A stretch of 64,000 bases of DNA, taken from positions 1 to 64,000 of the IMG/VR virus record IMGVR_UViG_3300040801_001492. One strand, given 5' to 3'. The position numbers and the translations under genes were made by a program. This document shows, one piece after another, positions 1,133-54,395 of this stretch. The number at the start of each line of letters is the position of its first letter. Within the stretch, counting starts at the first letter, position 1. The notes beneath the pieces were generated by a model. The model searched no databases. It saw nothing but the letters and a program-made list of their open reading frames with translations, and was not told the DNA's origin. Origin of the DNA: a virus.

Positions 1133-1894
1133 TTAATAAATTGAAAATTCACTATTTAACCATGTTCTTATTGATGCCTGATCCCCGCTGCTATCAGCAC
1201 CTTCTCTTACTATAACATAGAAATATGCCACATCGGAGTAATAACCAAGTGCCGCCCTGCTACCAAGCCTTATGCCGCTCATGTTCTCTGCCCCCACATC
1301 AAGACCCGTCTCTTCACTATCATTGTCTATCCTAAAGGTACTGGATGCCCCGTTGAACACTGCTGTCATCAAGTGCAACTGATCATAAACCATTGTTGCC
1401 GTTATGCCCGCCGTTGTGCCTGCATTAAGGTAAAGTTCAGTCGAATCTGACGACTGTGCCAAGCGAGGGTCTAAATTAGCATCCGATGAGCTAAAAAAAG
1501 CACCATATTGTTCATGGGTGTGTGCCCTGAGAACAAGATACACCGTAATGGGTTGGTCAAGGGTGTCTATGCCCGAATCATAATATATGTAATTATCAAC
1601 ACCATCAAAAAACACACTATCGCCTGAATGTCTTGGCATGTCTGTTAATGTTGATTGCTCTAAATGCCTATCGTTTCCAGACTTGTCATTCCATTGGTTT
1701 ATTGTGTCATTCGTTTCATAGGTCATATAAGTAGCTATAGCCTCAAATTCTGCATAGGTATTCCCATCATCCATACACGCTGGTCTGCCACTCGAAACAT
1801 AATGAGCCGAATTGACAATAAGCCCACCACTAACTTGCCCAAAGCAAATTATCGGCAGCAATAAAAGTAATATGCCAAAATATAGTTTTTTCAT
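1133..1894 (-). CDS. Signal-peptide protein with LamG/concanavalin-like lectin domain
   Basis: MKK plus hydrophobic stretch, cleavage CFG-Q; WNDKSGNDRHLEQ...VFFDGVDNY pattern of phage LamG-like domains. Confidence 0.65.
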   Translation of the reverse strand: MKKLYFGILLLLLPIICFGQVSGGLIVNSAHYVSSGRPACMDDGNTYAEFEAIATYMTYETNDTINQWNDKSGNDRHLEQSTLTDMPRHSGDSVFFDGVDNYIYYDSGIDTLDQPITVYLVLRAHTHEQYGAFFSSSDANLDPRLAQSSDSTELYLNAGTTAGITATMVYDQLHLMTAVFNGASSTFRIDNDSEETGLDVGAENMSGIRLGSRAALGYYSDVAYFYVIVREGADSSGDQASIRTWLNSEFSIY

Positions 1895-3282
1895 TCTAAG
1901 TGTCCAAATATGTTAATAATTAACTGTCGTGGTTTGGCTGTCGCCTCTTTGATGGTAGCCCAAAACCATTTACCAGCAGCAACAGTCCCATTTGTCATAC
2001 CTGTTGAGGAATCTCCCGAAGTAGTGCTTGTCACCGTAAGGTCACTTGTTAATACCTCAGTAGCCCCTGCATCTCTGTAATTGTCATCATAGTACAGGTT
2101 AATATCAACATCAGGCGAGCTGCCCTGAACAACAGCAGTAACAGAATCAATGACAAGACTGTAACCCCCGCCTATCTGAGTGCCAAATAAAACACTATCT
2201 ACATTGAAAAACAGAGTGTCATTGACATTGTTATATCCTATCGTATAAGAGTACATCGGTCTTACATCATCAATAAGCAGGGGCTCATCTGTTGACCTTG
2301 CTGAATAAGGAACATAAGGATTTAAGGTATCAGCACCATCGTAGAAATAAAGGTTGCTGCTAACATCAGAGGTGATACTGTCAAGCTCAACCATATCGCC
2401 TCCTGTTACCCCTACATTTAGCTTTGCAACGGTTAGGTCTGCTATTGACGTGTTACCCGTATGGCTCTCATTAGATATGTCTGCCTTTGCGTTTATCTGC
2501 GTCTGCACATCTGTACCCGATATTGTCTTTAATAGCTCTGCATCACCCTCGGTAATCACATCATCACCTATTGTTATCTGTGTGGTGAAGGTAGGAGATG
2601 AAAACATTGTAGCTTTACTTTCGTTAGTAACATTATTAAGAGATAGATCAGTCTTTAGCTCTGCTGCAGAGCGTGCAGTAATAGTATTATCTGCGTTAAA
2701 CCTTGGAAAAGTAACTGCCGAAGGATTAGTTAAGGTAAATATATTCTGTCCTATTGTTGTACCACCGAGACTTGTTCGTCCTGTAGCTGCCACTAAACCA
2801 GTAGCACCACCATCCCATTTAAGTCGGTCTGTATATGCAGTATTCCAGTTAGTAGAATTATCTGATACAATGGAATAACTTCCTGCACCTGTACGAGACA
2901 ATAATCCATTCGATCCAAAATCACCGTCTTCTAAATATCCTTGAGTACTGTGGTCTCCCCAACCATAGGCTGTATTCCAGTTAGCTGAGTTATTAGCAAT
3001 AGAAGAACCCCAAGCAGCTCCTGTTGAAAGAGCTATACCTGCATCTGGATATGTCATACTACCGCCACCTCCTGTACCAGCCAGTCTAACACCTTGAGAA
3101 TAGAAATAAATAGTATCATTACTTATTATAGCACTATCTATTTTTTGTATATTACTACCAGATACGGAATCACCTATCTGTATTCCACTGATAGCATTTA
3201 TTCTATATTTAAAAACATTCTGACTGAAAGCAGCAGATGCTATAAATAAAAATCCTATAATTATTAGTATTAATTTCTTCAT
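1891..3282 (-). CDS. Tail-fibre-like protein with N-terminal signal peptide
   Basis: MKKLILIIIGFLFIASAAFS-Q; fibre-type segments NWNTAYGWGDH and LSLNNVTNESKATMFSSPTFT; G/S/T-rich. Confidence 0.6.
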   Translation of the reverse strand: MKKLILIIIGFLFIASAAFSQNVFKYRINAISGIQIGDSVSGSNIQKIDSAIISNDTIYFYSQGVRLAGTGGGGSMTYPDAGIALSTGAAWGSSIANNSANWNTAYGWGDHSTQGYLEDGDFGSNGLLSRTGAGSYSIVSDNSTNWNTAYTDRLKWDGGATGLVAATGRTSLGGTTIGQNIFTLTNPSAVTFPRFNADNTITARSAAELKTDLSLNNVTNESKATMFSSPTFTTQITIGDDVITEGDAELLKTISGTDVQTQINAKADISNESHTGNTSIADLTVAKLNVGVTGGDMVELDSITSDVSSNLYFYDGADTLNPYVPYSARSTDEPLLIDDVRPMYSYTIGYNNVNDTLFFNVDSVLFGTQIGGGYSLVIDSVTAVVQGSSPDVDINLYYDDNYRDAGATEVLTSDLTVTSTTSGDSSTGMTNGTVAAGKWFWATIKEATAKPRQLIINIFGHLE

Positions 3283-17836: not shown

Positions 17837-20800
17837 TTAAATTAATTTTTCGTAATCTTTTTCTCCCCTGCTATAACGAAAATCGAATTTTTTCTTAAAC
17901 TTAGACCTATAATTAAAGCCTCCTAGTCTATTAAAAAAGTTATCCTTAAACCTATCATTAATCTTATCTTCAACATTTCTATTGATATATTTAATTCTAT
18001 CTTCTCTTAATACCATACACATACCCATAGCTGATACACGGTCAAAGTTACCATCGGGGTCCCAGGCTATAGCTTCTCTAAGATAGCCTAACGATCGTAT
18101 AGTATGTAAGTTAAGCAGTTGAGGTTTTTCTATCTTATTACCTTCCTCATCATATTCATCTTCTTCTAAAGTATATGCAGAACTAATCATCCAGTCAGCC
18201 TGTAGTTTACGACCCCAGGCATTAACAAATTTACTTGCTGTTGTGCCTTTTGAATTATGGGTAACAATAAAATCATTTATTAGGTAACATTCTGATTTAT
18301 TATTTACTGTAATACACTTAGCTTTTTCCCTATGAGAATATTTAATATCTATAATAGGTATTCCTAACATCCTGGCTTTTAATTTACCAGAAGGATTTTT
18401 AGAAAGTTTTTTTAATTTTCTAGGTAATTTAAATAAATTCTCATTAGTCCATATTTTTATAGCATAAGAATCATTACACTGTATATAGATATCTCCTTTC
18501 TTATAACCGGCCTTATTTAAATAAATCTTACTGTGATATCCTAAACTTCTAGCAATAAAGCATACATCTTCTGCTAATTGTTTTGAAATAGTATTAAACA
18601 CTGGGGTACCTTGTCCAACATATCCATCTGTATCTAATAATCCTTTTAATATATTAAGTCTAATTTCAGATGTATTAAATTTATATATATTAGGAATGAA
18701 TTTATTTATAGAAGTTTTATTATTTAAGTTTAATTTTTTTAAATATGATTCGGCATTTGGAATCCTTATATAACAATGTCTATCATCGCTTGGTGTAGTA
18801 AATTTATATATATTAGGAATGAATTTGTTGTATTCTGTTAAATCACAATAGTTAGAAGTAAATCTAACAGTATTACCTTTAGTACTTTTAACACTACCAT
18901 CTCCTAACAATAATCCAAGTGTATATGGGTCTATAGGTACATCCTGTTTATTAAATTCTACCTTAGAACTAGAAGGAATCAAATATTCATGTGTTGAATA
19001 TCCTGATTTGTGTAATCTTTTATATTTATAAAATAATTCCTTAGTAGATAATGTACTTCTTTGTTTAGTGCTTGGTTTTAAAACATCCCAAAGGTGATTA
19101 TTTGAAGCATATACTATTCTTCCGTCAAACAAAGTAATTTTATAAATATCAGTAAAATCATCAAAAGGAATATCTACTACTTTTGTAGATTGTCCATTAT
19201 CAGCGAATATTATATCTCCTATTTTAATATCTTTCCATTGTTTTTTACCAGAAGGAGTGTATATATATTCAGAATAAGGATGAGCTGTGTTGCCGAATCC
19301 TGCTCCTTTAATTAAGTCCATATCACGTAGTATCTGAGGTGTATCAGATAGATACTGCAGCAGATTCATATTCTCAGCATAGGCAAAGAATCCTTTAATA
19401 TTATTCTCATAGTTAGCTTGTGCATTATAATAACGTATAAGGCGTAAAGCAGTATCATAAAAATCAGTTGCTCTAGGTGGTCTACCTGAATACTCAGCTA
19501 CTATCCTATCTGTCCATAGGTCGAAAATAAAACATGAGCCTAATGATACTGTATAGGTTCCTTCATCACTATCAATAGGGTCTACTCCCGCTATATACCT
19601 ACCAAAAGGTACTCTACCTTCACTATCTCTCTTAGGTAACTCAAATATCTCAACACAGCCTGTTCTATCTATATCATCCTTAATAGGAAATTCACGTAGC
19701 ACAGGATGATTTTGCTGCATATCCCAATCTATCTGACCATCGGCTTTATTCTTTAATGTACCTACATAGTGAGAAGCAGTAAATTTATTAATATCTACTA
19801 CTGCTTCGGCTACCATATCCTTCAAGTCAACAACAGGAAATATATTACCTTCCCTACGCATCACGGCGTCCTGGGGCGTAATACACATTTCGGCCTTATG
19901 CTGCACTAAAGCGTTAGTATCTGTAGAACCATATTTTATCTTTATACGCTCTTCTAAGATTCTTAACAAAGCAGCAACAACATCTGAGTTACCGTTCTTA
20001 TCATAACAACCTGTACGGTTAAGATATGCGGGGAAGAAAAAAGCACATTTAGTTTGTCCTATGGCATTCTTATCATATATATTAGGTATAGCTCTTACAT
20101 GGTAACCACCTGGGCTATAAAACAAAGTTTCTGCTCCTTTGAAGTCAGCAGATTCTGTACCTCCTGTACCTCCCCCAATAAGCTGTCCTACAGATATATC
20201 ACCATCTTCTACTGAGTGTCTTGCTATCTCCCATGACTGTAATAGATAAGGATTTTTACCAAACTCTTCCCAATAAACTAAGGGGCCTCGTTTACCACGA
20301 GCCTTATCGGGGTCACCCTGTGTAGTAACACCTATAACACTATTTTGCGTACCTTTAACTAATCCTTCTCTGTTTTTATACCCCATAACCCACTGCATCT
20401 CATTATATGAGTCCTTGAGCTTTAACCTTGACCATGGAGTATGTTCAGCACACCAGTTAACATGGTGTACAAATTTATTTAATATACCATCTTTAGTAAG
20501 ATATTCTTTCTCATTAGCTATAGCAAAACAGGTTACATTATTAGTATTAATAGAAGATTCTCCGAGAATAAATGCTCTTGCTAGGTCTGAACCTGATTTA
20601 TAAGAAAATCCAACACCACGTCTCTTAAGCATAGCTACATGCTCACCTTCTTTACGTGCCTGGTCTTTATAGTGATAATATAGATAATCACCATCATAAA
20701 CATGAGGAAAATCTAATATTTTTGTACCAGACTTACCTGACTTATTTATTTTAGAAGTAAGTAGTATAGGACTATAGTTAAGATAAAAATAGTACGAGCC

Positions 20801-21172
20801 TGGTATCCATTCGCCGTCCTCACGTACTAATCCATCACGACACCTACGAGCTTCTTCTTTCCAAAAACGTGCGTAGCTTGAGTTGGGATGGGTATTAGGG
20901 TGTATTCTAGTAAATGTTTTATATTGTTGAAAATGTATAGCTGCCTGTCTAAAATAATCCATATCCTCTAATATATGAGGATTAGATATATCAACCTCTA
21001 TCTTACCTTCTTCATCTTTTGGTAAATCAGCTATACGTGGTCTATTAGGACTAATAAGCCTTTTAACAAACTCAATAGTATCTATAACATCAAATATTTC
21101 TTCTTTTAGTTCTTTAGATAGTTCTTTTAACAGAGTATCATCTAAAGGTGTTTGTATTTCATTTAGTTTCAT
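17837..21172 (-). CDS. terL: Terminase large subunit with intein
   Basis: LKRRGVGFSY Walker A region, EEFG, GGTGG, nuclease GVDPID and GNFDRVSA. Confidence 0.92.
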   Translation of the reverse strand: MKLNEIQTPLDDTLLKELSKELKEEIFDVIDTIEFVKRLISPNRPRIADLPKDEEGKIEVDISNPHILEDMDYFRQAAIHFQQYKTFTRIHPNTHPNSSYARFWKEEARRCRDGLVREDGEWIPGSYYFYLNYSPILLTSKINKSGKSGTKILDFPHVYDGDYLYYHYKDQARKEGEHVAMLKRRGVGFSYKSGSDLARAFILGESSINTNNVTCFAIANEKEYLTKDGILNKFVHHVNWCAEHTPWSRLKLKDSYNEMQWVMGYKNREGLVKGTQNSVIGVTTQGDPDKARGKRGPLVYWEEFGKNPYLLQSWEIARHSVEDGDISVGQLIGGGTGGTESADFKGAETLFYSPGGYHVRAIPNIYDKNAIGQTKCAFFFPAYLNRTGCYDKNGNSDVVAALLRILEERIKIKYGSTDTNALVQHKAEMCITPQDAVMRREGNIFPVVDLKDMVAEAVVDINKFTASHYVGTLKNKADGQIDWDMQQNHPVLREFPIKDDIDRTGCVEIFELPKRDSEGRVPFGRYIAGVDPIDSDEGTYTVSLGSCFIFDLWTDRIVAEYSGRPPRATDFYDTALRLIRYYNAQANYENNIKGFFAYAENMNLLQYLSDTPQILRDMDLIKGAGFGNTAHPYSEYIYTPSGKKQWKDIKIGDIIFADNGQSTKVVDIPFDDFTDIYKITLFDGRIVYASNNHLWDVLKPSTKQRSTLSTKELFYKYKRLHKSGYSTHEYLIPSSSKVEFNKQDVPIDPYTLGLLLGDGSVKSTKGNTVRFTSNYCDLTEYNKFIPNIYKFTTPSDDRHCYIRIPNAESYLKKLNLNNKTSINKFIPNIYKFNTSEIRLNILKGLLDTDGYVGQGTPVFNTISKQLAEDVCFIARSLGYHSKIYLNKAGYKKGDIYIQCNDSYAIKIWTNENLFKLPRKLKKLSKNPSGKLKARMLGIPIIDIKYSHREKAKCITVNNKSECYLINDFIVTHNSKGTTASKFVNAWGRKLQADWMISSAYTLEEDEYDEEGNKIEKPQLLNLHTIRSLGYLREAIAWDPDGNFDRVSAMGMCMVLREDRIKYINRNVEDKINDRFKDNFFNRLGGFNYRSKFKKKFDFRYSRGEKDYEKLI
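18254..19285 (-). mobile_element. LAGLIDADG intein (344 aa), class 3 signature
   Basis: Begins AHPYSEY and ends IVTHN followed by Ser; HLW in block B, KCITV in block F; LGLLLGDGS and LKGLLDTDG endonuclease motifs. Confidence 0.9.
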
Positions 21173-48107: not shown

Positions 48108-48896
48108 ATGAAAATTCCGAAGATTGGTATTCCATTTTGGAGAATGGGAGATAATAGTTTAGGTGTAACATTGCCTTACTATACATATTTTGAACGTTTT
48201 GGTTATATTGTAGTGCTTAATCCCATGGTTGAACCAAATCAAGAATTATATACTGATATTGACCTATTAGTATTGCCTGGTGGTGCTGATATACTACCAG
48301 AAAGGTATAATCATATGCCTAGCCTGTTTACAGGTAAGCCGGACTTGATAAAAGATTATTTTGATATGCATGTACTTCCTAGGTATATTGCTGATACAGA
48401 TATTCCTATATTTGGTATATGTAGAGGTTTTCAATCTATAGCTGTACATTTTGGATATCCATTAATACAGGATATGTATCATGAAACTAATAAACCCGAT
48501 AAGAGGTGGGAAAATGTACATAAGCTGTCTGTTAATTCAGCTTTTGTAGAAGAGATGGCAAAATTTAACGAAAAAATAGAAGATAATTCTGATAAAATAT
48601 ATGATTCACTATATAATATTAAATTACCTTTTAATCGTGAATATGACAAAATTAAGAAAAGAAATCTTATTACTTTTTCAGTTAATTCATTGCACCATCA
48701 GGCTGTATCTAGTACACAGATAGAAGAAGATAAATCTTTTAATATTATAGCCAAGTATCAAGGTGCTTTTGCTCCTTTTATTGAAGCAATGGTTTCTGAA
48801 GATAGCAGAATAGCAGGAGTACAATATCATCCTGAAGAGCTGTTTGACGAACCAATAGCTAAGTATTTAATTTATAAATTATTATATAAAGTATGA
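48108..48896 (+). CDS. Class I glutamine amidotransferase, peptidase C26 (PuuD-like gamma-glutamyl hydrolase)
   Basis: LPGGADI, GICRGFQ, VNSLHHQAV and GVQYHPE. Confidence 0.92.
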   Translation: MKIPKIGIPFWRMGDNSLGVTLPYYTYFERFGYIVVLNPMVEPNQELYTDIDLLVLPGGADILPERYNHMPSLFTGKPDLIKDYFDMHVLPRYIADTDIPIFGICRGFQSIAVHFGYPLIQDMYHETNKPDKRWENVHKLSVNSAFVEEMAKFNEKIEDNSDKIYDSLYNIKLPFNREYDKIKKRNLITFSVNSLHHQAVSSTQIEEDKSFNIIAKYQGAFAPFIEAMVSEDSRIAGVQYHPEELFDEPIAKYLIYKLLYKV

Positions 48897-49270
48897 AAAA
48901 AGAAAGAATTTTTGTTTATGGTACCTTACTAGAAGGTTGTGGTAATCATCAATATTATCTGCGTGATGCTAAGAAACTAGGCGAACATATAACAGATTCA
49001 CAATTTACTATGCTACATTTAGGTGGTTTTCCTGGAGTTATAGGAATAGGTAATACAGCTATTAGAGGTGAAGTATATGAGATTACTGAAAATGAGTTTA
49101 GGGATATAGATGGTTTAGAAGGATATAATCCTAATAATCCTTCTTATGGTCTGTATGATAGAACACAAATAAAAACTCCATGGGGTAATGCATGGATATA
49201 CCTATATAATCATCGTGATAATCATCATTTTAATAAAATAACCTCAGGATCATGGAGAAACAAAGACTAA
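48893..49270 (+). CDS. Gamma-glutamylcyclotransferase (GGCT/AIG2-like)
   Basis: FVYGTL, GEVY, DGLEGY and YDR. Confidence 0.92.
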   Translation: MKKERIFVYGTLLEGCGNHQYYLRDAKKLGEHITDSQFTMLHLGGFPGVIGIGNTAIRGEVYEITENEFRDIDGLEGYNPNNPSYGLYDRTQIKTPWGNAWIYLYNHRDNHHFNKITSGSWRNKD

Positions 49271-50046
49271 GAAAACGCCGTGTACAGATACGTACAAGAA
49301 ATCATTCAGCTAGACCATTAAGGGGTAATATAATGGCTGACCGTTCAGCTATTGTACGATTAGGTTCACTTACTACATTAGAGGATGCCTATACAAGAAA
49401 GAAAAATCTTAATAATATTGTTGAGATAAATACTGTGGAAGCTGTACAGAACAGTAGAGATAAATTTGCTATGAAAAAATGTTTTGATAATGCAAAAATC
49501 TCTCATGCAGACTATTACATTGATTCTACTAAAATAGATGATAGTATAGATTATCCTATTGTAGCTAAACGTAGATTTGGTTTTAAAGGTAGAGGTATGT
49601 ATCTACTATTTTCCAGAGGTGAATTTTTAAACTTTATGGAAAAGCAATATGATAAAGACTACTTCTTTGAAAAATTCTATAATTATGCACGTGAATATAG
49701 GCTACATATATGTAATGGTCAAATATTTATGGTGTGGCGTAAGTTACGTAAGAAAGATGCTGAAGAAAGGTGGTATTTTAATGATTCTAACTGTAACTGG
49801 GTAAGTGAACAGCATGAGTTATTTAACAAACCAGTTAACTGGAAAGATATATGTAAGCATAGTATAAAGGCAATGAAAGCTGTTGGATTAGATTTAGGAG
49901 CTGTTGATGTGAGGGTACAATCTGATAAGCACGAAACACCGTTATTTATTATTTGCGAAGTAAATAGTGCTCCTGCCTTAGGTAATAGGGGCATTGAAGA
50001 ATATAAAAAACAAATCCAAAATTTTATTGATAATTATGAAAAATGA
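49252..50046 (+). CDS. RimK-like ATP-grasp ligase
   Basis: SRDK, YPIVAK, GRG, EYRLH, GLDLGAVDV and EVNSAP. Confidence 0.9.
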   Translation: MEKQRLRKRRVQIRTRNHSARPLRGNIMADRSAIVRLGSLTTLEDAYTRKKNLNNIVEINTVEAVQNSRDKFAMKKCFDNAKISHADYYIDSTKIDDSIDYPIVAKRRFGFKGRGMYLLFSRGEFLNFMEKQYDKDYFFEKFYNYAREYRLHICNGQIFMVWRKLRKKDAEERWYFNDSNCNWVSEQHELFNKPVNWKDICKHSIKAMKAVGLDLGAVDVRVQSDKHETPLFIICEVNSAPALGNRGIEEYKKQIQNFIDNYEK

Positions 50047-50932
50047 TATTTTTATTTTTGATAGTATAGGATCAGACCCTGAGTTTTTCTTAACTGATGA
50101 GAATGGTAAATATGTTTCTGGTGCTTTAGTCACTACAGGAGGTAAGCGTAAGCCGGAAAAATTAGATAAATTAGGTTTTAATATCTTTACTGATAATCTG
50201 GCAGTAGAAGGTAATATACCACCAGCATCAACATTTGATAAGTTTAATAATAATATGCTTAAGCTTATTGATTATATAGGTGAAAGAGCAGAACAGAAGA
50301 ACCTTAGTGTAGCTCATGTTGGTCAGGCTGAGTTTAGTACAGAAGATTGTAATAGTATACAAGGACAGGAATTTGCCTGCTCAGCATCATTATATGCATG
50401 GCAGGGTATATATTATAAAACATTTGATGCTGTATCTATCAATGCCTGTCGTACTACAGATTTTTCTAGAGATAGAATGAGAACAGCTGGTTTTCATATT
50501 CATATAGGCTATCATGTAGAAAATAAAACTTTTACTGATCCTTTAGTATATGACTTACTAGTGGCTAAAATATTTGACCTGTTTGTTAGCTTACCTACTC
50601 TTGAGATACAGAATAAAGAAACGTTCAGAGAAGAAAATTTTGGTTTATTAGGTAACTTTAGAAGCAAAAGATATGGTGTTGAATGTAGGTCGTTAAGCGG
50701 TTATTTTACTCATCCTACTTATTATAAATGGCTGTGGACACAGATACAACACATGTTTGAATATATCAACTCATTAAGTAAAGATGAGCTTACAGAGCTT
50801 CTGGAACTGCATATTTTTGATGCTCCTAATAAAGCTATGGTAAAACAAGAGTTTGAGAAATTTTCACCAGAGACTCCTGATATGATACATCACTTTTCTA
50901 ATTTAATTAATATTAATACTTATGCAATATAA
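50036..50932 (+). CDS. phiEco32-like COOH-NH2 ligase (type 2)
   Basis: GSDPEFFL, DNLAVE, RTAGFHIHIG and GNFRSKRYGVECRSLS; start adjusted. Confidence 0.88.
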   Translation: MKNDIFIFDSIGSDPEFFLTDENGKYVSGALVTTGGKRKPEKLDKLGFNIFTDNLAVEGNIPPASTFDKFNNNMLKLIDYIGERAEQKNLSVAHVGQAEFSTEDCNSIQGQEFACSASLYAWQGIYYKTFDAVSINACRTTDFSRDRMRTAGFHIHIGYHVENKTFTDPLVYDLLVAKIFDLFVSLPTLEIQNKETFREENFGLLGNFRSKRYGVECRSLSGYFTHPTYYKWLWTQIQHMFEYINSLSKDELTELLELHIFDAPNKAMVKQEFEKFSPETPDMIHHFSNLININTYAI

Positions 50933-52916
50933 TAAATACAACCTTATTCTTCTTGTTATTGTTGTAATCTTCTATATCATGTTGCCTGAAGATATAACAG
51001 CTGCGTGTGGTTTATTTGCTTTCTTCGGTTCTAATCCTACCAAATATTTTAGCTGGAAAGATTTTAAGATATTAGGTGTTTTTAATGATGCCAGAGGTAA
51101 TGATGCGTGCGGTATAACAACAAACGATAATGTACAGAAATATTGGCATCAGGGTATTGTTGAGTTTAAGGATGCTATAATAAAGAAAGAGATAATACAC
51201 AATTTTACTGTTAAAGACCATATCTTAGGACATACAAGAAAAGCATCTAGTGGAGGTAATTGTATAGACACAGCACAACCTTTAATATTCTATAAAAACG
51301 ATGGCCCCCCATTATCGAAAGCATATAAAGATGAAAATTATAGGCTTTGGTTGAAAAAACAGCCTAAGAAAAGTATTGTTTTTAGTGGTATACATAATGG
51401 TACAATACATAATATAGATAAGTTAGCAGAAAAATATCATGTTAAAACGAAAGATAAGAATGACACTGCTATGTTATTTGAGATACTGTTTAAAGGACAT
51501 TATGAAGTACTAACTGAATATGAAGGTACAGCATCATTAGTTTTTTATGATTACTATACCGAACAGATATATATCTGGAGAGGCGAATCCTTGGCTTACA
51601 GCAGTAGTGTTGCTGTTTCTGAAGAAAGACCATTATTTTATTATGCCCCTGCTAAGAATAATTTCTATTTATCTTCTTTAAAAAACTCATTACTATTTAT
51701 AGGAGCTCCTGAGAACCATGCAATGGAAGTACCTTCTAATACTCTGTTTGTATATCATAAAGGAAAACTGGTAAGTAATGTAGCTTATGATAGGTCGAAA
51801 GCTAAACAGGTAGTTACATATTCTTCTACAGGTAATGCATGGAATTACAGAGATAGTAATAATTCATGGGATAGGTATTCTGCAAGACATTATACGCCTG
51901 CTATACAAGGATTTCATAATAATAAGTATGGTAATAATAATACAACAGATAAGCTACGTAAAGATGATACTAAGCGTCTTTATCTTGTAACATCTGGTTC
52001 ATTCTCTAAAGGAGCTTATAGGCTAATAAATGAGAATGTAGCAGCTATTGCAATAAATAACCCACGCAGATTAGCTTTTTGTAAAGGTAGATATTGGTAT
52101 GGTAATAATTTAGCACATGGTCTATTGCCTGTTAATACTTTAGGTATCATACCACATAAAAAACAATTACCTCTAGCTATTTCTAAAGCTAAACTATATG
52201 GGTTTATTGAAGGTGTACTGGTAGAAGATTTAGCATCATATTTTATTATGCAAGATACTTATAATAACATATTAGCAGATTTAATTGAAGCAGATAAGAT
52301 TGATATAAATGATATTATTCTAAAAGAGAGGGATTTACTAGAAAATTTAGCTTTCTTTACTGACCATTTTACTGATAGTATAGTATCAGTAAGTGAGATT
52401 GAAGCAGTTAAGTTTTTAAACAATCGTAATGAATATCATTATTATACAGGTGTTACACATCCTAAATTCTCTAATAGGAAATATGCTTTTGAAAATGGTG
52501 ACCTTAATTACATAGAATATATGAGTAATATATCTTATGATCTTAACCATACACAGGAAGATGTTACTGAAGTATTGGATTATATAGAAACACCTATGGA
52601 ATTTTATGCAGAGAAAGGACAAGCTGAATCAGATATAGATGCTATAGGTAGAATACTTATACAACAAAAAGACAAAGATATACCTATTTCTTTCTTTACT
52701 AAAGTTTTAAGAGGTGAAATAGAATATGATATAAATACTAGTCTTAAAGAAGAATTTCTTTTAGCTAAATCAATATATTATAAAACATTCTATTCACATC
52801 TAAAATTTAATAGATGTGATAAAGACCAGTGTAAAGACTGTTCTTATTATGAGAAATATTTAGAATATTGTATACGTTGTGTACAAGAATCAAGTTTAAA
52901 AATTGTTACAAAATAA
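50922..52916 (+). CDS. Class II (Ntn) glutamine amidotransferase with N-terminal leader and long C-terminal extension
   Basis: CGLF at residue 29; RGNDACG, GHTRKAS, HNGTI, NDT and ERPL. Confidence 0.88.
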   Translation: MQYNKYNLILLVIVVIFYIMLPEDITAACGLFAFFGSNPTKYFSWKDFKILGVFNDARGNDACGITTNDNVQKYWHQGIVEFKDAIIKKEIIHNFTVKDHILGHTRKASSGGNCIDTAQPLIFYKNDGPPLSKAYKDENYRLWLKKQPKKSIVFSGIHNGTIHNIDKLAEKYHVKTKDKNDTAMLFEILFKGHYEVLTEYEGTASLVFYDYYTEQIYIWRGESLAYSSSVAVSEERPLFYYAPAKNNFYLSSLKNSLLFIGAPENHAMEVPSNTLFVYHKGKLVSNVAYDRSKAKQVVTYSSTGNAWNYRDSNNSWDRYSARHYTPAIQGFHNNKYGNNNTTDKLRKDDTKRLYLVTSGSFSKGAYRLINENVAAIAINNPRRLAFCKGRYWYGNNLAHGLLPVNTLGIIPHKKQLPLAISKAKLYGFIEGVLVEDLASYFIMQDTYNNILADLIEADKIDINDIILKERDLLENLAFFTDHFTDSIVSVSEIEAVKFLNNRNEYHYYTGVTHPKFSNRKYAFENGDLNYIEYMSNISYDLNHTQEDVTEVLDYIETPMEFYAEKGQAESDIDAIGRILIQQKDKDIPISFFTKVLRGEIEYDINTSLKEEFLLAKSIYYKTFYSHLKFNRCDKDQCKDCSYYEKYLEYCIRCVQESSLKIVTK

Positions 52917-52922
52917 AATATA

Positions 52923-54395
52923 ATGACAGCATATACAAAAGATATAGACGCAGTAGTTACTACCGTACAAGGAAAGAAAACCTTACGCAAATATTGTCGT
53001 TATATAGGCAAAGAGTATCATGAGATTAATGTAGATTGTTTTAAAATTAATGGTACATGGTATAGAACTAAAGGTGATAAAATTATTTATGATTATGAAC
53101 TATATAAATGGAGACTTAAATCAGATGCTCCTTTTGTAAGAGGTGTAATTGATATTCTACCTAATAATGAATATCAATACGGTCATTTTACTCCTTTGAA
53201 AGGAAAAAATATTGATATTATGGTAGGTAAATCATTATATAGAATAATGACTGGTATAGATATATCATTGATAGAAAAAGGTAGCCTTATTGAAGGTCGT
53301 AATGGTGTCTTCTATTCAGCTGAAATAAAAGATTCTTTTAAAAAAGAATTAGACCAGTATGTTAATATTGGTGGAAGACAAGCATCTTTTTATAATATAT
53401 CATGGGATTATAGCTCTGAATATAATATACCTGAATTTCAAAATGTATTTAGTAATACAAAACTAAAAGGTAAACTATATAATAATTATTATAATTATCT
53501 AAAATATACTTTCGGGATTGAGTTTGAAACAGATAATGGTGCTATTCCTGAGAGGTATCTTAGACCGATGGGTTTAATACCTTGTAGAGATGGTAGTATA
53601 GGTGGTTTCGAATATGTTACTGTACCGTTATATCAGGAGAAAGGTATACAGGCTGTACATGAGCACTGTAAATTATTATCTTATTTTTGTGTTATCAATA
53701 AATATAATTCCGTACATCTTCATCTAGGAGGTTATCCTAGAACAAAAGAACATGTTGTGGGATTATATAGAATGTTAACATTTTTACAGGACGATATATA
53801 TAAATTATTTCCTTCTGCATATAGAAATACTAGTTTATTTAAAAGACGTTCTTATTGTGAGCCTTTAGCTTATGTACCAGGTTCGCAAGATATTGATAAC
53901 TCATTAAGTAATATTATTGCAAGATTAGGAGGACGTTATGATGGTACTTTACCAGAAGGTCAACATCATCCTATGGATTTTACAGGTGAACATAAGTGGC
54001 AAATTAGTCCTAGATATAAAATAATAAATCTTATTCCTCTAATCTGGGGTAATAGAGGTACTGTCGAGTTTAGAGTACACACACCTACTATAGATTTTAA
54101 TAAAGTTATTTATTGGTTATTTATATGTTCAGCTATTTTACAATATGCAGAACAAAAATATATGAAATTTACTGTACCAACAAATAATTTTCAAAAATCA
54201 GTATCGTTATCTAAGATTATGAAAACTGTTTATCCTCTTGATATAGCTAATAAGATTATTGACTATATAGATGTTAGGACAAAATACTATGCAAATGGTA
54301 ATGATCCTTCAGGTGAACACGAAGTATTAGATGAGACTAAGCTTAGAACACTTCCTGTTAATAATATTAACCCTTTAATTAGAGTATATGAATAG
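52923..54395 (+). CDS. Amidoligase (COOH-NH2 ligase, Amidoligase_2-like)
   Basis: TFGIEFE, DGSI, EYVT, SVHLHLG, RY..INL and TVEFR. Confidence 0.88.
   Translation: MTAYTKDIDAVVTTVQGKKTLRKYCRYIGKEYHEINVDCFKINGTWYRTKGDKIIYDYELYKWRLKSDAPFVRGVIDILPNNEYQYGHFTPLKGKNIDIMVGKSLYRIMTGIDISLIEKGSLIEGRNGVFYSAEIKDSFKKELDQYVNIGGRQASFYNISWDYSSEYNIPEFQNVFSNTKLKGKLYNNYYNYLKYTFGIEFETDNGAIPERYLRPMGLIPCRDGSIGGFEYVTVPLYQEKGIQAVHEHCKLLSYFCVINKYNSVHLHLGGYPRTKEHVVGLYRMLTFLQDDIYKLFPSAYRNTSLFKRRSYCEPLAYVPGSQDIDNSLSNIIARLGGRYDGTLPEGQHHPMDFTGEHKWQISPRYKIINLIPLIWGNRGTVEFRVHTPTIDFNKVIYWLFICSAILQYAEQKYMKFTVPTNNFQKSVSLSKIMKTVYPLDIANKIIDYIDVRTKYYANGNDPSGEHEVLDETKLRTLPVNNINPLIRVYE

Follow-up and report, generated by a model that had tools for sequence, protein, structure and literature searches.

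We analysed a 64,000-nucleotide stretch of viral DNA (IMG/VR record IMGVR_UViG_3300040801_001492, positions 1 to 64,000; hereafter the window) and focused on the open reading frame (ORF) at 50922-52916 (+), which encodes a class II amidotransferase (GAT-II) of the N-terminal nucleophile (Ntn) type. Directly before its catalytic cysteine lies a 28-residue leader with a strongly hydrophobic core, and leaders of this kind recur in the family. The window protein is very probably a membrane-targeted zymogen of some kind. Our preferred reading, to which we give a probability of about 0.45, is that the enzymes of its clade would be exported and their Cys1 unmasked at the periplasmic face.

Catalytic cysteine and leader of the window enzyme

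In a profile search of the PDB with 111 aligned relatives, Cys29 of the window protein fell on residue 1 (the mature Cys1) of PurF chains, and the mature chains 1ao0 and 1gph begin at the residue aligned with it. C29, R106, H158-N159-G160 and D181 are invariant in the 111 relatives, and the last three elements align with the GHVR, HNG (Asn-Gly oxyanion hole) and DSE motifs of PurF. The AlphaFold2 (AF2) model of residues 30-300 has a predicted local distance difference test score (pLDDT) above 90 and presents the four-layer alpha-beta-beta-alpha Ntn fold, and the best Foldseek matches of the glutaminase domain are GlmS, PurF and AsnB at E values of 2e-9 to 1e-7. By alignment and structural model, Cys29 is the catalytic nucleophile of a class II amidotransferase. 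Ntn amidotransferases require a free alpha-amino group on Cys1, as is known from the enzymology of PurF, GlmS and AsnB, so the leader would have to be cut exactly at Ala28/Cys29.

The frame of 664 codons is opened by ATG 50922, with an in-frame TAA upstream at 50904-50906, and this ATG overlaps the stop (50930-50932) of the upstream COOH-NH2 ligase gene by 11 nt. Besides this ATG, the frame offers just two starts before the Cys29 codon, ATG 50979 and TTG 50982 (9 and 8 codons upstream), and the initial annotation had read this correctly in noting that the TGT at 51006 has no adjacent start. The leader consists of MQYNKYN, a 14-residue uncharged hydrophobic run and PEDITAA, and is followed by CGLFAFFG. 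Its hydrophobic stretch reaches a Kyte-Doolittle value of 2.52 over 17 residues, and values of at least 2.0 occur in just 7 of the 83 window ORFs of at least 80 aa. The layout is that of a tripartite signal peptide, with one Lys in the n-region, the 14-residue hydrophobic (h) run and a 7-residue c-region with Pro at -7, and the site agrees with the (-3,-1) rule (Thr at -3, Ala at -1). P0003, which at 51% identity is the nearest relative, has the start M-x-Y-N-K-Y in common and no internal Met. Because the open frames, the homologue loci with a single start and the start of P0003 all agree, ATG 50922 is taken as the true start; the internal ATG 50979 is not conserved among the sequences compared.

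Leader conservation and leader types in the family

The family sample comprised about 172 representatives of 50% clusters carrying the CG[LI]F motif, and the DNA upstream of the Cys codon was read in 160 loci from IMG/VR and metagenomes. A hydrophobic leader of at least 15 residues is present in about 130 of the about 172 representatives. By class, 86 have leaders of a charge polarity opposite to that of the window, about 32 belong to the window's clade and 41 begin with Met-Cys; these counts include related sequences and do not represent independent events. Leaders range from 22 to 63 residues, with cores of about 2-3.4 on the Kyte-Doolittle scale over 15 residues.

The open frame upstream of the Cys codon is short in Met-Cys loci (median 4.5 codons, maximum 13; n=84) and long in leader loci (median 39 codons, minimum 27; n=64), with nothing between the two classes. 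In several loci (L081, L082, L083, L086, L089 and others) the sole start codon of the open frame precedes the hydrophobic core, and the leader must be translated in many homologues because no other start exists there. Within the window's clade, 20 of 27 unique loci lack an ATG past the start of the core, and 10 lack any ATG, GTG or TTG there. For relatives with short gene calls (P0008, P0014, P0019 and P0040), the DNA also encodes a basic stretch and a hydrophobic core, with an ATG upstream. From these sequences, the leader is real, conserved and translated, far beyond what chance would give. An artefact of T-rich DNA was also considered, and was ruled out by the bimodal frame lengths and the single-start loci.

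The initial annotation had proposed a precursor with a transmembrane (TM) or signal-like leader that must be removed at Ala28/Cys29, and had named leader conservation among homologues as the point to check; the counts above bear it out. It had also named two findings that would speak against the idea, namely homologues beginning with Met-Cys and a short soluble propeptide as the only product; neither applies to the window's clade, and Met-Cys starts do occur elsewhere in the family, in the 41 representatives already counted.

Several public gene calls (P0002, P0008, P0010, P0014, P0015, P0019 and P0040) begin within the leader or past it, with GTG or TTG as the start in some. The practical consequence is that the feature is concealed in protein databases, because gene callers often start inside or past the leader and so trim it. 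Met-Cys forms are scattered among leader forms on the tree, a pattern implying that the leader was repeatedly gained and lost in the family. The GAT-II subfamily, which has its own C-terminal domain, gave matches in only 3 phage genomes among 50,697 phage records and in only 6 contigs of metagenome-assembled genomes, probably phage, among 185,579 genomes; crAss-like and related uncultured phages account for nearly all of its occurrence.

The window's clade has 31 members (support 0.90). Its leaders have a K/R-rich n-region, a core of 11-25 residues and an acidic or polar (D/E/N/S) c-region that contains helix-breaking Pro, Asn or Asp. The Sec-type succession of basic n-region, h-region and polar c-region holds across 40 clade leaders. 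The cleavage motif is [DN]-[ILV]-[ITS]-[YLW]-[AG]|C, in which position -1 is Ala or Gly in 34 of 34 loci, and the (-3,-1) rule is obeyed by 39 of the 40 clade leaders versus 27 of 107 leaders of the other type. The clade leader therefore looks, in its sequence, like a cleavable Sec signal, for which the positive-inside rule predicts an N-in/C-out topology.

In leaders of opposite polarity (86), Met stands directly before a hydrophobic core in which an acidic residue and a central His are often found. After the core comes a K/R-rich stretch such as F-K-P-K, with Leu at -2 and mostly Asn, Tyr, Ser or Phe at -1. Their charges predict an N-out/C-in topology. Because residues of this kind at -1 make the site unacceptable to signal peptidase, the nucleophile of this group would have to be freed by Ntn self-cleavage. 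In many of these leaders (e.g. L034, L055 and L161:4917-5009), a conserved His, sometimes Asn, occurs mid-core together with the F-K-P-K-type motif after it, which suggests a specific role for both elements beyond anchoring.

Two small groups depart from this division. P0133 and P0148 have clade-like polarity and a similar cleavage motif, yet are placed with weak support among Met-Cys forms elsewhere on the tree. Nested within the clade, a lineage of four members (P0020, P0041, P0043 and P0044) keeps the small -1 residue and has its charge polarity reversed.

A cultured counterpart is gp051 of Cellulophaga phage phi14:2 (AGO48929.1; annotated as glucosamine-fructose-6-phosphate aminotransferase), a homologous GAT-II from a crAss-like phage with the same cassette order. 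Like the window enzyme, it has a hydrophobic leader (31 residues) directly before CGLFGW. Unlike the window leader, it is of opposite polarity, with no basic n-region, KKRR after the helix and Ser at -1. For bench work, phi14:2 gp051 in Cellulophaga baltica would be the cultured model.

Proposed export of the enzyme and alternative readings

For the window's clade we infer membrane insertion, topology, export and the cleaving agent as follows. Translation from ATG 50922 would yield an inactive precursor, which would be targeted to the inner membrane in an N-in/C-out orientation set by the flanking charges. The catalytic part would be translocated and the 28-residue leader removed exactly at Ala28/Cys29, which would leave Cys1 exposed on the periplasmic side. 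Either signal peptidase I would cleave there, or the enzyme itself would break the same bond through an N-to-S acyl shift. Export is favoured because the leader has Sec anatomy and its flanking charges predict N-in/C-out. We also count for it the K/R content of the first 11 mature residues (0.38 in the window's clade versus 1.22 in Met-Cys forms), and one may add the polarity and motif of P0133 and P0148, whose placement on the tree is weakly supported. The cell wall has moreover already been proposed as the target of the surrounding gene cassette (PMC5498523, PMC10580990).

The strongest competitor, which we consider possible and somewhat less probable than export, takes the leader either as a tether that holds the pro-enzyme to the inner membrane on its cytoplasmic side or as a hydrophobic pro-helix with an inhibitory effect. 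Ntn autoproteolysis would then cut at Ala28/Cys29, and the mature enzyme would work in the cytoplasm with the ATP-dependent ligases. A number of observations weigh against export and at the same time speak for this alternative. The same cassette accompanies Met-Cys enzymes, which are necessarily cytoplasmic, as well as opposite-polarity and window-clade enzymes, and the cassette partners are ATP-dependent or of cytoplasmic type; by hydropathy, no hydrophobic segment or signal was found in the other cassette proteins within the window. For these reasons the wider claim of the initial annotation, that the chemistry of the whole cluster would be placed at the cell envelope, is not supported in that form.

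Most leaders of the family, moreover, carry K/R downstream of the helix, and their -1 residue is Asn, Tyr, Ser or Phe, a combination that predicts a cytoplasmic domain and self-cleavage; opposite-polarity leaders, that of phi14:2 gp051 included, are not signal peptidase substrates, so the family would be able to self-process. The interspersion of Met-Cys and leader forms on the tree makes the leader look like a dispensable add-on. Since the cleavage motif persists in the nested lineage with reversed charges, the small -1 residue may just have been inherited. Positions -5, -4 and -2 are conserved beyond what the specificity of signal peptidase explains, which suggests docking of the pro-segment on the enzyme. 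Mature clade proteins contain 4-17 scattered Cys; their parity, taken as a possible marker of the periplasm, shows no bias to even numbers (15 odd versus 11 even), and DsbA is missing from many anaerobic hosts. The zinc-ribbon-like CxxC-x9-CxxC tail of these proteins also occurs in part of the Met-Cys and opposite-polarity members. Finally, the intact glutamine-binding residues suggest delivery of ammonia to a cytoplasmic ligase. What stands against a cytoplasmic enzyme in the window's clade is the leader itself. Its charges (basic before the helix, acidic after it) predict N-in/C-out, a strongly hydrophobic N-terminal helix of this polarity normally drives export of the part downstream, and all but one of the 40 leaders obey the (-3,-1) rule.

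A further reading, which we regard as unlikely, is that one orphan enzyme is located on either side of the inner membrane depending on the phage, with N-in leaders in the window's clade, N-out leaders in most others and none in the rest. If true, this would fit a cassette target that is a membrane-embedded envelope precursor flipping between leaflets, e.g. a lipid-linked cell-wall or surface-glycan intermediate with a gamma-glutamyl-type group. Ntn cleavage would then be a built-in switch, with the enzyme active only once at the membrane. The released hydrophobic peptide of 25-30 residues may, in addition, be a functional membrane peptide in its own right.

Translation could also begin at the internal ATG 50979 (or TTG 50982), which would leave a 9-residue soluble propeptide resembling the 11-residue one of Bacillus subtilis PurF and make the hydrophobic stretch an untranslated T-rich spacer. 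The public gene call of the window enzyme (P0002, 645 aa) does start at ATG 50979, and the Shine-Dalgarno motif does not distinguish the two ATGs, being absent at both 50922 and 50979. Such a start is nevertheless improbable, given the absence of Met at this position in P0003 and of a late ATG in most clade loci, the upstream ATG with basic and hydrophobic stretches in all short-called relatives, and an open frame of no fewer than 27 codons in all leader loci versus no more than 13 in Met-Cys loci; overlapping starts are also the rule in this operon. Only from ATG 50979 could the window yield a short soluble propeptide of the PurF type (about 10 residues, no hydrophobic core), and the leader read from ATG 50922 is not of this kind.

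Least credible of all is a lipoprotein signal, in which Lgt and signal peptidase II would lipidate Cys29 and anchor the enzyme with a blocked thiol: a hydrophobic leader with Ala or Gly at -1 before Cys does recall one, but the PROSITE-style lipobox (no D/E/R/K in six residues before [LIVMFWSTAG](2)-[LIVMFYSTAGCQ]-[AGS]-C) occurs in 2 of 40 clade leaders and not in the window (Asp at -5, Glu at -6), clade leaders have acidic residues at -5 to -7 and Tyr, Trp or Leu at -2, and a nucleophile with invariant catalytic partners would be lost by lipidation. The remark of the initial annotation that lipidation would inactivate the enzyme thus concerns an improbable event.

Compared with known systems, Bacillus subtilis PurF is alike in being the precursor of a class II Ntn amidotransferase in which removal of a propeptide exposes Cys1. 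The PurF propeptide has 11 residues and is soluble; the leaders of the phage family differ from it in their length of 22-63 residues, their TM-grade core and their two opposite charge polarities. In periplasmic Gram-negative Cys-Ntn hydrolases such as penicillin V acylases, removal of a signal peptide exposes the nucleophile Cys, a route for which our literature search gave no confirmation. Those enzymes belong to the choloylglycine hydrolase fold family and not to the class II glutamine amidotransferases (GATases), and they have neither the glutamine-binding triad nor an ATP-ligase cassette.

The enzyme family and its cassette are already known. In the part of the literature covered, we found no class II amidotransferase with a TM-grade pro-leader and no mention of the leader on GAT-II, its two polarities, its gain and loss or its link with gamma-glutamyl cyclotransferase (GGCT). 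The leader on the catalytic Cys is the first sequence-level clue to the location of the cassette, for which it points to the inner membrane or envelope, and it turns activation by proteolysis into a testable step.

Amidoligase cassette, C-terminal half and genome context

The five partners of GAT-II in the window all lie within 48108-54395 (Table 1), and by gene content they form a phiEco32-type phage amidoligase cassette. Like the phiEco32/LUZ24/RIO-1-type cassette, it combines Amidoligase_2, COOH-NH2 ligase type 2, ATP-grasp, C26 GATase, GGCT and GAT-II among replication genes, and the GAT-II gene itself belongs to a co-directional operon flanked by the primase gene on one side and the exonuclease/ribonucleotide reductase/PolA genes on the other. 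The phage amidoligase cassette was reportedly predicted in 2009. To our knowledge, annotations of the phiEco32-type cassette have accumulated in hundreds of phages since then, with no product or target assigned. Later papers call it a "peptidoglycan modification cassette" and suppose an alteration of the cell wall that blocks superinfection, with no experimental product (PMC5498523, PMC10580990).

Table 1. Positions of the GAT-II gene, its parts and its cassette partners in the window
Feature	Position	Strand	Basis
Whole gene, pre-pro class II (Ntn) amidotransferase, 664 aa	50922..52916	+	Upstream ATG; start of P0003 alike
Leader n-region MQYNKYN, one Lys	50922..50942	+	n-regions of clade relatives K/R-rich
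Leader hydrophobic core, residues 8-21, 14 uncharged	50943..50984	+	Kyte-Doolittle over 17 residues = 2.52; h-run 14; AF2 helix 5-20
Internal ATG (Met20), public gene-call start; 9-residue soluble propeptide if used	50979..50981	+	Absent in 20/27 unique clade loci and in P0003
Leader c-region PEDITAA, predicted cleavage Ala28/Cys29 (-3 Thr, -1 Ala)	50985..51005	+	Clade motif; (-3,-1) rule 39/40
TGT, Cys29, Ntn nucleophile, Cys1 of mature enzyme	51006..51008	+	Aligns with residue 1 of mature PurF; invariant in 111
Class II glutaminase (Ntn) domain, residues 29-300, with R106, N159-G160, D181	51006..51821	+	Pfam GATase_6 2.5e-8; AF2; Foldseek 2e-9
Linker, residues ~301-357, poorly conserved, low confidence	51822..51992	+	pLDDT 34-57; gappy columns of alignment A1
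Conserved C-terminal domain (KGRYW, F-x-EG, YTG and FS-x-R-x-Y motifs)	51993..52811	+	AF2 predicted template modelling score (pTM) 0.81
CxxC-x9-CxxC (C637, C640, C650, C653), zinc-ribbon-like	52830..52880	+	Nearly invariant in alignment A1
Class I GATase / Peptidase_C26 (gamma-glutamyl hydrolase type)	48108..48896	+	Profile match
Gamma-glutamyl cyclotransferase (GGACT)	48893..49270	+	Pfam PF06094, 6e-22
RimK-like ATP-grasp ligase	49252..50046	+	phrog_2599, 1e-28
phiEco32-type COOH-NH2 ligase type 2	49994..50932	+	PF14395; phrog_3815, 5e-38
Amidoligase_2 (glutamine-synthetase-like)	52923..54395	+	PF12224, 2e-9

Across the family, the partners beside GAT-II were counted in loci with adequate flanks. 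Amidoligase_2 was found in 94 of 94, COOH-NH2 ligase in 89, C26 in 86 and ATP-grasp in 83. The GGACT/GGCT gene accompanies GAT-II in 12 of 12 window-clade loci, 20 of 23 opposite-polarity loci and 13 of 59 Met-Cys loci (loci L001-L160), counts that are uncorrected for relatedness and in which many Met-Cys loci come from near-identical gut crAss phages. For the COOH-NH2 ligase ORF at 49994-50932, the listed TTG start overlaps the ATP-grasp gene by 53 nt, and the true start may be downstream.

In the C-terminal half of the enzyme, the conserved domain (residues 358-630), which would be the candidate acceptor (synthase) domain for ammonia, reached an AF2 pTM of 0.81 when modelled alone. It had no Pfam match, no Foldseek match in the PDB at E<=1e-3, no VIA match at Z>=2 and no lead in the ESM Atlas. 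A confident model combined with the lack of Pfam, Foldseek or VIA matches means that this domain (51993-52811) could represent a new fold. Nothing in it points to nucleotide binding, and it therefore does not decide the location of the enzyme.

The window is part of a crAss-like phage genome of about 101 kb with 32% G+C. The family A DNA polymerase shares 37-40% identity with its counterparts in cr108_1, IAS virus and crAss001, and PHROG matches were obtained for the terminase, portal and major head genes; we infer the host from this crAss-like affinity only. Elsewhere in the window, two adjacent ORFs without a PHROG match (1133-1894 and 1891-3282, both on the minus strand) begin with textbook Bacteroidota-style signal peptides (MKKL..., core, small residues, Q). 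Another ORF at 17837-21172 (-), with 1111 aa, resembles a composite terminase: one TerL PHROG is matched over residues 68-619, and residues 635-974 match other TerL PHROGs as well as P-loop primase/helicase-loader families, so that a fusion, a duplication or an insertion could be present.

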